From positions 286,895 through 350,894 of the forward strand of contig JAKIVS010000001.1 in assembly GCA_022750435.1 (NCBI GenBank): a DNA stretch of 64,000 bases. Reading direction: 5' to 3'. Both the position numbers and the translations under genes were made by a program. Below, in pieces: positions 30,995-35,633 of the stretch. The first letter of the stretch is position 1. Every line of letters starts with the position of its first letter. Origin of the DNA: Thermoplasmata archaeon (GTDB lineage Archaea; Thermoplasmatota; Thermoplasmata; Lutacidiplasmatales; UBA184). The notes beneath the pieces were generated by a model, which did not search any database, had not been told where the DNA came from, and saw nothing but the letters and a program-made list of their open reading frames with translations.

Positions 30995-33460
30995 GTGCCG
31001 GCGGGCGGTGGGGCACCTTCCATCGTTCGACCGGGACGATGCGGACTTGGTGCGGGAGGCGCACGGGACGCGGTGGCCGGCCCAGCGCGTGCCCCTTCCC
31101 GACTCGAACGGAGCTGGGCGTTCCGCGGCGCTCCCCGACCGGCCCACTCCGACCGGAGGGATCGCTTCCACGGAGCCCTCCTGGCGGCCCTCCGCATCGC
31201 ATCGGGATGGCCTGTCGAAATCGTCCTTCGATGGAGCACGGGCCCACGCGCAGCCTTCCTCCTCGACACGGTCGATGCCCCGTCGACGGCATGGGCGACC
31301 ACGGCCCTGCTCCCGATCTATCCGGCCGGAAGTTGGGGGGCCGGGTCCGCACTCCCGGCCCTTCCGGAGCGTCGGCACGCCGTCGCCGTGGCCCGCCGTG
31401 GAATCGAACGTCCGTTTCGCCGCTCCTCCGAACTCGCCGCTCCCTGGGTCGATTCGGTCGCCGCGGCGCTCTCGCTCTTTCCCCCGGGAGGCGCCGTTGT
31501 TTGGCGACTCCGCCCGCTTGGTGTCGCGTCGACGGCAACTCCCTGGGTCGCTCCACCCTCCCCTCAACCCGTTGGTTGGCGGTCCCCACTCCCCACCGAC
31601 ACCGTGCGGCGTCTCGACGACGCGGCGTCCGCCCGTTCGATCGCTCCGTTCTGGGACCTCCGGGCCGAGCTGGTCGGTCACTCGCTCCCGGCGGCCGATG
31701 CGCTCGGACGTCTGATCGCCTCCGCGGCGCAGGAGGAGGGCGGGAACGGAATCCGCTGGCGTCGGTCGACCCGGTGGTTCGGCCGGACTCCACCCCCGAT
31801 GTGGCTCTCGGTCGAGGAGCTGGCGAACTGGTTCCCGTCGCCGTGGCTGCGGCTACCGGACTCGACTCTCCCGGCCGTCGAGGGCACCCGCGTCCTCCCG
31901 CTGGGCCGCACCCTCACCGGACGGTCGTGCGGACTTTCGGTCGAGCCGGCCCAGGGCCGTCACGCTCTCCTGCTCGGCGAGACCGGGATGGGAAAGAGTT
32001 CCCTCCTCGTCCGGCTGATGGCGCGCGCCGCGGCCCTCGGGGCCGTGGTGTTCTTCGACCCGATCGGCGATACGTCCCGCCGGTTGATCGACCACCTCCC
32101 AGAAGTCGACCTCGGCCGGGTGGTCTGGCTGTCCCCGGCCTGTTCCCCGGTGGGAATCAATGCGCTCGCGCCCGCGGCGCCGGACTCGTTGGCCGGTCAG
32201 CGGGCCCTCGGCGACCTCGTCGAGGCCCTGCGCAGGGTCCGCGCCGGGCGGTACGCCGAGTCGCCGTTCTGGGGTCCGCGCCTCGAGGAGATGCTCACGT
32301 TGGCCCTGCGGGCCGCCTCTCGCTATCCCGGTGGGACCCTCGTCGACGCCGCCACGCTTCTCGGGGGAGGCGGTCGTTCGCCCCGGGGAGTTCCCCCCGG
32401 AGCCGAGTCCGCCGTCCAGGAACTCATCGATCGGATCCGCGACCGGCCCGACGAGATCGACGGTGCGCGCCGAGTGCTCGGCGAAGTCGTCCGTACGCCG
32501 ATCCTCGCTCGGATGCTCCCAACTCGGACGCCGGCGTTCTCGATGGCGGAGGCGATCCGGACCCGTCGCATCGTGCTGGTGAGTGGGGACGCGCCCGAGG
32601 TCGGGGAGGCCGCCGCCCGGACGCTCCTCTCGGTCCACCTTGCCCTCCTATGGCTCGAGATCGTCGCTCGCCCGGCGGCGAAGACGTTCGTCGTCGCCGA
32701 CGAGATCCAGGGGTACTCGAACGATGCCGCAGTGGAGCTGTTCCGAATGGGCCGACGGTTCAACGTCCATCTCTGGGCGGCGACGCAATCGTTGGCCGCC
32801 CTCCCCGAGGTCGTCCGGGAGGCCGCGGTCACGAACGCCGCGGACATTGTGGTCTTCCGAGGATCGCCGGACGACGCCCGCGAGGTGGCTCGCTGGGCCC
32901 CCGAGCTGGCGAGCGAGTCGCTCCTCGGGCTCCGTCGCGGCGAGGCGGCCGTGCTCGCCGGGAAGGGGTCCGACGTGGCCTGGGTCCGGATCCCGTTCGA
33001 GCCCGACCGGCCCCGACCCGACCGGTGGTCGACCCTCTGGGAGCAGTGCCGACCCTTCTGGAGCCCGAATCCCGCTCCGGAACCTCCGACCGAGCCGCAC
33101 GACGGCGCGCCGCCGGACGCCGGAGACAGCGAGGATCCCGTTCGGGAGATTCTCCTCGTCCTTTGGGCCGGCCTTCTTGCGACCTCCGAGGGGGCGGCCC
33201 TCACGGTGTCGCTCGATGCGCTCCGGGAGGCCGTGGACCCATCCGGCGCCGGGGTTCGGACCGTCGGTCAGCGACTCTCGGCCGCCGGCGCGCTCGAGGT
33301 CGGGAGCTCTGCGGCCGGACGTACATGGACGGTCGAGCGCGCGGCCGTGGCGGCCTTGCTCGGGGCGGGGGTGGCGCCGGCGGAGCTGGTCGAAGCCGAC
33401 CGGCGGTGGGCGCGCGTCGCCACATCGTCCGGCGGTTCCGGGGCTCAAAAAGGACTTTAG
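30995..33460 (+). CDS. HerA/FtsK-superfamily (DUF87/VirB4-VirD4-like) P-loop ATPase with unassigned N- and C-terminal regions
   Basis: Walker A LLLGETGMGKSSLL (~31976), FFDPIGD, Walker B FVVADEIQ (~32686), and RRFNVHLWAATQS. The start is uncertain, and GTG 31073 is an alternative. Confidence 0.7.
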   Translation: MPAGGGAPSIVRPGRCGLGAGGARDAVAGPARAPSRLERSWAFRGAPRPAHSDRRDRFHGALLAALRIASGWPVEIVLRWSTGPRAAFLLDTVDAPSTAWATTALLPIYPAGSWGAGSALPALPERRHAVAVARRGIERPFRRSSELAAPWVDSVAAALSLFPPGGAVVWRLRPLGVASTATPWVAPPSPQPVGWRSPLPTDTVRRLDDAASARSIAPFWDLRAELVGHSLPAADALGRLIASAAQEEGGNGIRWRRSTRWFGRTPPPMWLSVEELANWFPSPWLRLPDSTLPAVEGTRVLPLGRTLTGRSCGLSVEPAQGRHALLLGETGMGKSSLLVRLMARAAALGAVVFFDPIGDTSRRLIDHLPEVDLGRVVWLSPACSPVGINALAPAAPDSLAGQRALGDLVEALRRVRAGRYAESPFWGPRLEEMLTLALRAASRYPGGTLVDAATLLGGGGRSPRGVPPGAESAVQELIDRIRDRPDEIDGARRVLGEVVRTPILARMLPTRTPAFSMAEAIRTRRIVLVSGDAPEVGEAAARTLLSVHLALLWLEIVARPAAKTFVVADEIQGYSNDAAVELFRMGRRFNVHLWAATQSLAALPEVVREAAVTNAADIVVFRGSPDDAREVARWAPELASESLLGLRRGEAAVLAGKGSDVAWVRIPFEPDRPRPDRWSTLWEQCRPFWSPNPAPEPPTEPHDGAPPDAGDSEDPVREILLVLWAGLLATSEGAALTVSLDALREAVDPSGAGVRTVGQRLSAAGALEVGSSAAGRTWTVERAAVAALLGAGVAPAELVEADRRWARVATSSGGSGAQKGL

Positions 33461-33485
33461 GGGCGACCCCCCCTTGTTTCCGCCG

Positions 33486-34262
33486 ATGGCGACTGCGGCG
33501 AGACCGGAACCGGCGGATGCCGGCGGGATCCGGGAGCGCTGCGTCACCGGGATCGAGGGGCTCGACAACATCCTCGGAGGTGGCATTCCCCGGGGGAACC
33601 TGGTGCTCGTGGCCGGAAGCGTCGGCACGGGCAAGACCACCCTCTGCCTCGAATTCCTCGTCCGCGGCGCCGAGAAGGGAGAACGCACGCTGTTCCTTTC
33701 GGTCACCGAGGCGTCGGCGAAGCTGATCGAGAATCTCTCCACGTTCGAGTTCTTCCGCCAGGACTTGGTGAGTTCCGGCGCGCTGGTTTTCGTCGACGTA
33801 CCGCAGATCTACGACCGACTGGGCCTCAACCACGAGGAGCTGACCGTCGAGGAGATCGACCTCCTCCTGAAGTCGTTCCTCGACCTGGTCAAGGAGGTCG
33901 GCGCCCAACGCGTCATCGTCGATTCCCTGACCTCCGTCTGCTACCGGATCCGGCGCGACGAGCGGATCCGCGACTTCATGCTGAAGCTCTCGCAGGGGCT
34001 CGCGGCGCTCGGCTGCACCACGCTGCTCGTGTCGGAGATCGGCCAGAGCGCCGGACGCTACTCCCTCCACGGCGTCGAAGAGGCGATCGTCGACGGCGTG
34101 ATCCTCCTCGGGAACGCGCGGCGGCAGGGGGACATCCTGCGGATCCTGCAGGTCGTCAAAATGCGGGGAACTTCGCACTCCCGGGCCCAGTACGTGATGG
34201 AGCTCACGCCGATCGGATTGCTGATGGCGCCCCACCTGAAGGGCGGCCGGCAGGAGACGTAG
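33486..34262 (+). CDS. KaiC/RadA-like single-domain RecA-superfamily ATPase (motifs intact)
   Basis: ATG 33486 inside ORF 32583..34262. TGIEGLDNILGGGIPRGNLVLVAGSVGTGKTTL, Walker B RVIVDSLTS, and ILQVVKMRGTSHS. Confidence 0.8.
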   Translation: MATAARPEPADAGGIRERCVTGIEGLDNILGGGIPRGNLVLVAGSVGTGKTTLCLEFLVRGAEKGERTLFLSVTEASAKLIENLSTFEFFRQDLVSSGALVFVDVPQIYDRLGLNHEELTVEEIDLLLKSFLDLVKEVGAQRVIVDSLTSVCYRIRRDERIRDFMLKLSQGLAALGCTTLLVSEIGQSAGRYSLHGVEEAIVDGVILLGNARRQGDILRILQVVKMRGTSHSRAQYVMELTPIGLLMAPHLKGGRQET

Positions 34263-34849
34263 TGGCTCCCGACGACGAGATCGGCGAGCGTCTCCGGCAG
34301 CTGGCCGGGGGCTCGGCGGTGGCGATCCGCCTCAACCCGCGCGAGTACGCCGACGACTACTTCGCGGTCCTGAACGCCACGCTGCGGGACGTCGGCAGCG
34401 AGACGAACGCCCACACGATCTACGTCTCGGTGACGAACCCCGCCTCGCTGGTGTGGTCCCTGGCTCAAGCGCTCGACGTGGACCCGACGCGCCTCTCGTT
34501 CGTCGACGCGATCAGCCACATCATGATGAACTACCGCGACCCGCTCCCGAACGCGACGTACGTGGAGTCGCCGCGGATGCTGGAGGACATCATGCTCCGC
34601 ATCGAGTACTTGCTCCGCAAGCACCCGAGCCCGCGGCAGATCCTCGTCATCGACTCGGTGAACTCCCTCGCGATCCACAACCCACAGGACCTGTTGTCCG
34701 AGTTCTTCCATATCCTGGTGAACAATCTGAAAAGTCGCCAAGTGCTCACCGTGCTCCTGGTCGTGAGCGAGGACACGGGCTCCGAGCTCAACCAGATGCT
34801 CGGCCTCGTCGTCGACGAATCGATCGAGGTCGTCCGGGGGCGGCAGTAA
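34262..34849 (+). CDS. P-loop-less RecA/KaiC-fold-like protein (DUF835-like pattern)
   Basis: The GTG start overlaps the upstream TAG by 1 nt. It keeps ILVIDSVNSLAIHN (Walker-B-like strand) and VLLVVSED but has no GxxGxGK[ST]. Confidence 0.5.
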   Translation: MAPDDEIGERLRQLAGGSAVAIRLNPREYADDYFAVLNATLRDVGSETNAHTIYVSVTNPASLVWSLAQALDVDPTRLSFVDAISHIMMNYRDPLPNATYVESPRMLEDIMLRIEYLLRKHPSPRQILVIDSVNSLAIHNPQDLLSEFFHILVNNLKSRQVLTVLLVVSEDTGSELNQMLGLVVDESIEVVRGRQ

Positions 34850-34853
34850 CCCG

Positions 34854-35633
34854 ATGGTCGACGACCAGAGCGTTCTCGGCATCCGCGAGCTCGACTCGGA
34901 GCTGTACCCGTACATGCCTCCGGGCTGGCTCGGACTCCTCGTGGGCCACTCGGGCTCGGGCACACCGCTCTTCGCGAAGCAGTTCGCCCAAGCGATGGTC
35001 GGTGCGTCGCCGGTTCTGTACTACACTACCTACGAGCGGACCGAGGACGTCCACCGGGCATTCCGCGACTTTGGCTGGGACCCGGACGGGGTCCAGATCG
35101 TCAACCTCTCCGAGGAGTACTTCCGGAACGTCCTCGTCCACTCCTTGGAGGTCTCCCAGCTCCGGGAGCGCGGTCTGAAGCTCTCGGACCTCGACGGCTC
35201 GAAACCCCGGCCCCCGACGCCGACGACCTACAACATGATCAGTCGGCTGCTCGCCGACCTGGCGGCCCTCGACGGCCGCTTCCGCCTCGTGCTCGACTCC
35301 CTCGACTTCTTCTTCGAGGTGCTCGAACCGACCGAGGTCATGACGGTGGTTCGACAGATCCGCCACCGGGCGCAGGAGCTGGGGGGACAAGCGCTCCTCG
35401 TCGTTCAGGGCGAGTTCCACGAGCGACGGATCTCGGGCCCGTTGGAGGACATGGCGGACCTGGTCGTGGAGTTGAGCGCCCGCCCACGCGGGGAATCGTA
35501 CGAGCACACGCTCGCGGTGCGGAAGATCCGCAACCACCCGGAGCGCACCCGCATCCTCCCCGCCAAGATGACCGGAAGCGGCCTTTCCGTCGTCGCGACG
35601 GAACCGACCGCCAAGCCGGGGCGTCCCGGTTAG
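34854..35633 (+). CDS. KaiC-like paralogue with degenerate Walker A
   Basis: GWLGLLVGHSGSGTPLF, where GK[ST] is replaced by GTP. RLVLDSLDFF. LAVRKIRNHPERTRILPAKMTGSGLSVV corresponds to the KaiC C-terminal motif. Confidence 0.65.
   Translation: MVDDQSVLGIRELDSELYPYMPPGWLGLLVGHSGSGTPLFAKQFAQAMVGASPVLYYTTYERTEDVHRAFRDFGWDPDGVQIVNLSEEYFRNVLVHSLEVSQLRERGLKLSDLDGSKPRPPTPTTYNMISRLLADLAALDGRFRLVLDSLDFFFEVLEPTEVMTVVRQIRHRAQELGGQALLVVQGEFHERRISGPLEDMADLVVELSARPRGESYEHTLAVRKIRNHPERTRILPAKMTGSGLSVVATEPTAKPGRPG

Follow-up and report, generated by a model that had tools for sequence, protein, structure and literature searches.

We have analysed a 64,000-nucleotide stretch of the genome of a soil-dwelling Thermoplasmata archaeon of the order Lutacidiplasmatales (GenBank assembly GCA_022750435.1, contig JAKIVS010000001.1, positions 286,895 to 350,894 of the forward strand; hereafter the window), which carries three KaiC-related genes in series. 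The first gene encodes KaiC1, a canonical single-domain KaiC-like ATPase of 258 amino acids (33486..34262 of the window, assigned by Pfam KaiC and motifs). The other two encode proteins of 195 and 259 amino acids, named here P195 (34262..34849) and P259 (34854..35633). All window features described below lie on the + strand. An initial annotation, made from the sequence alone, had placed the P195 and P259 reading frames at exactly these positions, in series with KaiC1, and had taken both products for pseudo-ATPases of the KaiC/RecA fold. We consider this assignment highly probable, as Pfam, hhalign and AlphaFold2/Foldseek agree on it: both predicted folds are of the RecA/KaiC type, and no functional Walker A motif was found elsewhere in either protein. 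In terms of their motifs, P195 and P259 are two grades of inactivation, the former having lost all catalytic parts and the latter the Walker A residues only. KaiC1 would be the sole subunit of the trio with a canonical capacity for ATP binding and hydrolysis.

Motifs of KaiC1

KaiC1 scored 193 bits on the Pfam KaiC family (PF06745; E value 6e-57). Its sequence contains the Walker A motif GSVGTGKTT (33615-33641), the catalytic Glu within SVTEAS (33696-33716), the Walker B motif RVIVDS (33909-33929) and the Lys/Arg fingers VKMRG (34155-34175). The canonical motifs, namely G[ST]xG[TSC]GKT[TS], hhhhD and KM[RKA]G, were present in 22 of the 22 KaiC1 orthologues checked.

Fold and motifs of P195

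P195, a P-loop-less inactivated KaiC (iKaiC), was assigned by AlphaFold2, Foldseek and hhalign. Its score on Pfam KaiC was 26.9 bits (E 4e-6), marginally above the 26.6-bit cut-off, and its family profile gave no match to PDB sequences at E ≤ 1. The hhalign comparison with the KaiC1 family aligned residues 46-168 of P195 with KaiC1 residues 62-184 (93.4 %, E 2.6e-7). The AlphaFold2 model had a predicted local distance difference test score (pLDDT) of 87.8 and a predicted template modelling score (pTM) of 0.87. Its top Foldseek matches were 2dr3 (PH0284; E 5e-7, template modelling (TM) score 0.68), 2w0m (SSO2452) and KaiC, with TM scores of 0.63-0.70 for 2dr3 and 2w0m. Considering that the model is confident and that its top matches are KaiC-like, the fold assignment of P195 holds.

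In the P195 model, strand 19-24 runs almost directly into helix 26-47, and the eight-residue phosphate loop is absent; this strand 1/helix 1 junction lies within AVAIRLNPREYA (34316-34351). A regular-expression search found neither [AG]xxxxGK[ST] nor GK[ST] in the protein, in agreement with the earlier observation that it lacks GxxGxGK[ST], and a P-loop occurs in none of 121 aligned homologues and in none of 16-22 orthologues across the phylum. At the position of the catalytic Glu, P195 has Asn59 within VSVTNPA (34424-34444); position 59 is variable across the phylum, and a conserved Glu was never seen there. The sole catalytic-type motif left is the Walker-B-like ILVIDSVNSLAIHN (34640-34681), which includes the ILVIDSVNSL strand picked out in the initial annotation (34640-34669) and in which Asp131 and Ser132 of hhhhDS are invariant in 121 sequences. 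P195 ends before the C-terminal KxR hairpin segment that bears the Lys/Arg fingers. Two further family signatures are FVDAISH (within 34496-34531) and YVESPRMLE (34559-34585).

Database searches returned 486 homologues of P195 at E ≤ 0.001, the best 120 of which are 71-92 % identical, and 386 homologues of P259 at the same threshold, the best ones being 52-95 % identical; by these values, P195 is the more conserved of the two. When the P195 profile was run against 1.84 billion representative proteins, 1414 matches were obtained, and 444 of these reached E ≤ 1e-10. Many of the retrieved proteins are 320-1780 residues long and bear the P195-type domain at the C-terminus, and several have a signal peptide, an extracellular domain and transmembrane helices N-terminal to it. 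Retrieved proteins scored 42-50 bits on DUF7504 (PF24336), which is above the threshold, and some also carry DUF835 or TPR domains. The DUF835-like pattern suggested earlier for P195 was therefore apt, since its profile retrieves DUF7504- and DUF835-bearing proteins. P195 itself reached 21.2 bits on DUF7504 and P259 17.8 bits, both under the 27-bit cut-off, and neither matched DUF835 (PF05763; cut-off 33.1 bits) at E ≤ 1. P195 is best described as a divergent stand-alone member of the known iKaiC class.

Fold and motifs of P259

P259, a Walker-A-dead KaiC paralogue, was assigned by Pfam KaiC, profile matches to PDB sequences and AlphaFold2. It scored 58.1 bits on Pfam KaiC (E 1e-15; cut-off 26.6), its family profile matched solved KaiC structures at E 4e-17, and hhalign aligned it over its full length with the KaiC1 family (98.7 %, E 3e-16). 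Foldseek searches with the AlphaFold2 model (pLDDT 83.9) placed the CI domain of KaiC first (E 1e-12, TM 0.63-0.66), with PH0284 (2dr3) and PH0186 (2zts) among the top 20 (TM 0.62-0.66). A family-specific helical insertion occupies residues ~85-127.

The phosphate loop of P259 has degenerated to GHSGSGTP (34944-34967). As had been read from the sequence before, both the Lys and the Ser/Thr of Walker A are lost, and no GK[ST] occurs anywhere in the protein. Across 121 homologues and 16-22 phylum-wide orthologues, the loop of the family is Gx[SP]GxG[A/T/M/S/I][P/E]. Its glycines are conserved at 100 % (Gly31), 89 % (Gly34) and 92 % (Gly36) in the 121 sequences. The Walker Lys is kept in only one sampled lineage (L059, GAGKE) and the Ser/Thr in none; at the latter, the Mg-ligand position, Pro is found in the window's order and Glu elsewhere. 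The remainder of the active-site equipment has been preserved. Glu61, at the position of the catalytic Glu (35034-35036), and Asp148 of the Walker B motif RLVLDSLDF (35283-35309) are each invariant in 121 of 121 sequences, as is Ser149; in three distant orthologues, N or Y replaces the Walker B Asp. The fingers RKIRN (35520-35534) include Lys224 and Arg226. Lys224 is invariant in a 20-sequence alignment and kept phylum-wide, and position 226 is R or K. The retention of RLVLDSLDF and of the K(I/M)R motif, which the initial annotation had also pointed out, is thus confirmed at these positions.

P259 also has a family-specific invariant residue, Lys42 (34977-34979). It lies five residues past the position left empty by the Walker Lys, is invariant in the 121 homologues and is kept phylum-wide ('AKQ'); the corresponding residue of KaiC1 orthologues is Leu, Met or Val.

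Selection and conservation of the trio

The ratio of non-synonymous to synonymous substitution rates (dN/dS) was calculated from comparisons with five close relatives whose dS values (0.46-0.80) were unsaturated. The values were 0.009-0.116 for P195, 0.055-0.158 for P259, 0.057-0.094 for KaiC1 and 0.04-0.16 for the adjoining DRG GTPase gene. Both dead copies are under strong purifying selection, comparable to that on the DRG GTPase.

The three genes are closely spaced. The GTG start codon of P195 overlaps the TAG stop codon of KaiC1 (TAGTG; one base common to both), and the ATG of P259 lies 4 nt past the stop codon of P195. In 47 related Thermoplasmata loci, the order DRG GTPase, HerA-like ATPase, KaiC1, P195, P259, PAC2 and methyltransferase is conserved, and the trio is found together in every locus of the window's order where the extent of the contig permits. 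At the most distant locus (L047), where P195 is 40 % identical, only KaiC1-P195-P259 has been kept and all flanking genes differ. A stand-alone DUF835 protein (L047:4700-5263, 101 bits) is encoded ~1 kb 5' of the trio at this locus, which gives it three different dead-KaiC genes.

A profile search of 401 Thermoplasmatota genomes found the P195 family in 211 genomes and in 89 of 161 genera, with two large families of the same class lacking it almost entirely. KaiC1 is immediately 5' of P195 at 60 of 61 loci across the phylum, and P259 is the next gene at 47 of the 61. Accordingly, the KaiC1-P195 pair is the conserved core, and P259 is a frequent third member. At loci without P259, one or two archaeal type IV pilin genes (Pilin_N, 'AVSPVIATILMVAITVVLAA') can lie directly 3' of P195 (L050:5639-6742, L051:5760-6200, L052:4317-4931, L066:5754-6395, L068:2735-3869 and L069:4902-5390). 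One locus is atypical (L093:173-5469), with a KaiC1-like domain in an open reading frame of more than 1000 amino acids, followed by two P195-like frames and a KaiC-like frame; this may represent a module that has been rearranged or expanded.

The pairing extends to the Altiarchaeota. In this phylum, membrane-fused P195-type proteins (P0404, P0395) are encoded immediately 3' of a 237-amino-acid KaiC, which shares 42 % of its residues with KaiC1 (E 2e-63). Identity between the fused domain and P195 is 25 % (E 2e-15), and Altiarchaeota relatives carry PF24336. This adjacency indicates that the pairing of KaiC with a P195-type domain is conserved in two archaeal phyla. The proteins that follow the 237-residue KaiC at these loci (L108:4282-6182, L109:4110-8761) are membrane-anchored, have 393-615 amino acids and carry the P195-type domain C-terminally on the cytoplasmic side; at L109, two such receptor-like genes stand in tandem.

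Evolutionary rates were also compared. Partial rate covariation, with the shared signal removed, was 0.61 for KaiC1-P195, 0.41 for P195-P259 and 0.28 for KaiC1-P259, and no more than 0.13 with PAC2.

Probable transcription unit and upstream gene

A TATA-like box, ACTTTAGG (33454..33461, sequence inference), is centred ~28 nt 5' of the KaiC1 ATG and is preceded by an A-rich patch resembling a B recognition element. Boxes of related form (cTTTAGG / cTCTTAGG / cTCATAGG / TTATAT) occur at the same spacing in over 30 related loci, the distant L047 among them, and within the trio the conserved promoter-like box was found 5' of KaiC1 only. This arrangement suggests that KaiC1-P195-P259 forms its own transcription unit, with a leaderless or short-leader mRNA.

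The box overlaps the stop codon of the preceding gene, which encodes an 821-amino-acid ATPase of the HerA/FtsK superfamily (30995..33460; weak Pfam DUF87). This HerA-like protein matched DUF87 at E 2e-4 and AAA_16, and its best PADLOC match was mad8 (E 2e-14). Its sequence changes rapidly (31-64 % identity within the order), and its N-terminal region of ~300 amino acids gave no match. The gene is syntenic with the trio in the window's order only and is absent beside it at L047 and 60 other loci. Because the conserved box stands upstream of KaiC1, the trio is probably a unit separate from the HerA-like gene. A four-gene operon including the latter was considered and rejected: the linkage is confined to the order, the DRG, PAC2 and methyltransferase genes are equally syntenic, and the promoter-like box intervenes. 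A link to the PAC2 proteasome-chaperone gene was rejected as well, since its synteny is order-only and rate covariation is absent.

An open frame of 462 codons (33461-34849, frame 2) crosses KaiC1, and its first 267 codons contain no ATG, GTG or TTG. It is an off-frame artefact of high G+C content (70 % in the source genome) and could mislead gene callers on the start of P195. A P-loop hidden behind an alternative start or a frameshift was likewise rejected, because the frame 5' of 34262 is the start-less off-frame of KaiC1 and the homologues share the P195 start.

A putative regulatory module and alternative explanations

In RecA-type rings, the Lys/Arg fingers of a neighbouring subunit complete the ATP site. 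P259 keeps these trans-acting fingers but not Walker A, and it could therefore tune the KaiC1 site without using ATP itself. Taken together, the close pairing of the genes, their translational coupling and motif losses that complement one another suggest a hetero-complex with KaiC1 at its centre. We consider it about an even chance that KaiC1 and its iKaiC partners associate physically and act as a regulatory module. In such a module, the three genes would form one operon, and the complex would be a nucleotide-dependent switch of the archaeal 'KaiC hub' type, with the KaiC1 site as its canonical ATP-binding and hydrolysing centre. P195, a stripped KaiC core, would most likely be an obligate partner or adaptor that binds KaiC1 and takes no part in catalysis. 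P259 could insert beside KaiC1 in a RecA-type ring and so complete or modulate the inter-subunit ATP site. From gene adjacency, translational coupling, the P259 fingers and rate covariation, we infer that the dead copies may scaffold the active subunit.

Several points weigh against such a complex. P195 lacks the C-terminal segment with which KaiC subunits contact each other in the ring, so it may dock onto a KaiC1 ring rather than become part of one. P259 is missing at 14 of the 61 loci and is therefore non-obligatory. Part of the gene adjacency seen within the phylum is inherited synteny, and the loci do not count as many separate observations. An unrelated fast-evolving pair, the C-terminal part of HerA and MT28, covaries at 0.66, which makes rate covariation a soft measure. 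Also, no sensor, regulator or pilus gene adjoins the trio in its own genome.

A more specific arrangement would be a single RecA-type hetero-hexamer, for example with two copies of each protein, in which only KaiC1 binds ATP, P259 contributes the Lys/Arg fingers in trans and P195 serves as a non-catalytic spacer or docking face. We regard this arrangement as rather unlikely. If it were true, prokaryotes would have an equivalent of rings made of three paralogues, such as Elp456. The face formed by P195 could then be exchanged for membrane-receptor fusions, as in Altiarchaeota, coupling surface signals to one ATPase.

The regulatory module could also have a narrower role, in which the trio regulates the assembly of type IV (adhesion) pili by modulating a PilB/ArlI-type secretion ATPase, as the KaiC-like ArlH does in the archaellum motor. 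KaiC-family ATPases have been reported with archaeal type IV pilus loci (PMC4858521). Genes with an archaeal type IV pilin N-terminus occur within ±4-5 kb at 10-11 of the 14 P259-less loci (directly after P195 at about six of them), against 5 of the 47 loci with P259, and four neighbouring pilin genes were confirmed as Pfam Pilin_N (E 4e-13 to 2e-6). On the other hand, most pilin calls were made by regular expression, the loci are phylogenetically non-independent, and a pilin gene stands near only a minority of all trio loci. The source genome has its pilin genes and its sole T2SSE-type ATPase on contigs other than that of the trio (C17, C19, C3 and C24), and P259 reaches 26 bits on ArlH against a cut-off of 215. 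Considering both sides, we judge a dedicated pilus function to be doubtful.

Rad51 paralogues that lack Walker motifs and are non-catalytic are an established precedent, and a role of the trio as recombination mediators like Rad55-Rad57, Shu or aRadC, acting with the HerA-like ATPase on DNA, was weighed on this background. SSO2452 (2w0m) and PH0284 are among the closest structures, NCBI names P259 homologues 'RAD55 family ATPase', and a HerA/FtsK-superfamily ATPase gene lies directly 5' in the window's order. However, this linkage is confined to the order, the trio is seemingly set off by its own promoter box, and none of Mre11, Rad50, NurA and RadA adjoins it. Moreover, P195 has relatives fused to membrane, TPR and DUF835 proteins, an arrangement more in keeping with signalling than with DNA repair. 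We therefore consider a function in recombination improbable.

It is equally hard to credit P259 with binding, or perhaps slowly hydrolysing, a nucleotide through its glycine-rich loop, Glu61, Asp148 and Lys42, and we give this explanation only a small chance. Its model retains a loop of 5-6 residues between strand 1 and helix 1, in which Gly31, Gly34 and Gly36 are 89-100 % conserved; Glu61, Asp148 and Lys42 are invariant in the 121 homologues, and the L059 lineage keeps GAGKE. However, Lys42 is located five residues into helix 1 and ~140 degrees off the position of the Walker Lys, so that on geometric grounds it is unlikely to reach the phosphates. Every lineage has Pro or Glu in place of the Mg-ligand Ser/Thr, and the conserved Glu and Asp are explained equally well by structural or interface roles.

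Finally, P195 and P259 might be taken for decaying, functionless tandem duplicates of KaiC1, given that catalytic motifs are missing and an intact paralogue adjoins, but dN/dS values of 0.009-0.16, hundreds of full-length homologues with invariant motifs, the presence of P195 in 89 of 161 genera and the confident AlphaFold2 models refute decay, which we regard as extremely improbable.

Comparison with known systems

DUF835 and related domains have been described as 'iKaiC', that is, inactivated KaiC-like ATPase domains in archaeal signalling proteins (Galperin et al. 2018, PMC5847659). The iKaiC families DUF835 (PF05763), MEDS (PF14417) and DUF7504 (PF24336) resemble P195 and P259 in having the KaiC fold with the ATP loop lost, and, like the trio, iKaiC domains adjoin or are fused with KaiC-family and signalling proteins. 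The class was reportedly defined by Makarova, Galperin and Koonin in mBio in 2017. The tandem arrangements of P195-type domains with DUF835, and their C-terminal placement in TPR or membrane proteins, conform to a known iKaiC architecture (PMC5847659). P195 differs in that it is a stand-alone protein, has the signatures FxDxxS, ESPxMLE and DSxNxLxxHN, and keeps a fixed place directly after one specific KaiC orthologue. The operon also encodes a second kind of dead KaiC, P259, which is much less degenerate than P195.

Among proteins of solved structure, PH0284 (2dr3), PH0186 (2zts) and SSO2452 (2w0m; the aRadC/RadA paralogue) belong to the same one-domain size class as KaiC1 and P259. They also share the GIxxLD ... 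hhhhDS ... KxRG layout with these two, but they keep a canonical Walker A, which P195 and P259 do not. ArlH (FlaH) is also a small single-domain KaiC-like protein, acting as the regulatory partner of another ATPase and not as a motor. However, ArlH keeps Walker A and binds ATP, and no archaellum genes adjoin the trio. On the ArlH/FlaH model (NCBIfam NF052589), which has a 215-bit equivalog cut-off, P259 scored 26.4 bits and P195 had no match.

Cyanobacterial KaiC has the fold, the order of motifs and the KxR trans fingers in common with P259, its CI domain being the closest. Cyanobacterial KaiC differs in that its two domains, each with an active site, are fused in one protein whose partners are KaiA and KaiB; the genes described here encode separate single domains, two of which are inactive. 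The trio proteins score far under the KaiC equivalog cut-offs. The Elp4-Elp5-Elp6 ring, Rad55-Rad57 and Shu are hetero-oligomers of RecA-fold paralogues, several of them without catalytic motifs, and they offer a functional analogy only. Specific homology to Elongator was rejected: KaiC1 scored 22.1 on PAXNEB (cut-off 28) and P195 16.8 on Elong_Iki1 (cut-off 22.5), no Elp4-6 structure ranked within the first 50 fold matches, and the Elp3 gene lies unlinked on contig C6. A role in anti-phage defence was rejected too, as PADLOC gave no matches for P195 or P259 and only the mad8 match of the HerA-like protein and a short P-loop match of KaiC1.

It has been proposed that proteins of the KaiC family are the principal signalling hubs specific to archaea, and to our knowledge almost none of the archaeal hub proteins of this family has been characterised biochemically. 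That such hubs have inactivated KaiC partners is an established concept, of which the trio is an uncharacterised and well-preserved example. As far as the literature shows, the widespread three-gene form, the signature motifs of P195 and the dyad of KaiC and a P195-type domain across phyla appear to be new. Because the trio is compact, soluble and conserved and combines two grades of inactivation, it is a convenient system in which control of an active KaiC by dead ones could be studied in vitro. In public records, the proteins appear under the names 'RAD55 family ATPase', 'ATPase domain-containing protein' or 'hypothetical protein', the first two of which overstate their likely activity.

Other KaiC-family genes in the source genome

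The closest named relative among the compared loci was Candidatus Lutacidiplasma silvani, with 94 % identity in P195. In the source genome itself, PF06745 gave 12 matches in total, nine of them above the cut-off. Two more KaiC-family clusters, with two adjacent matches each, were found at C28:385999-387499 and C26:56063-59189.

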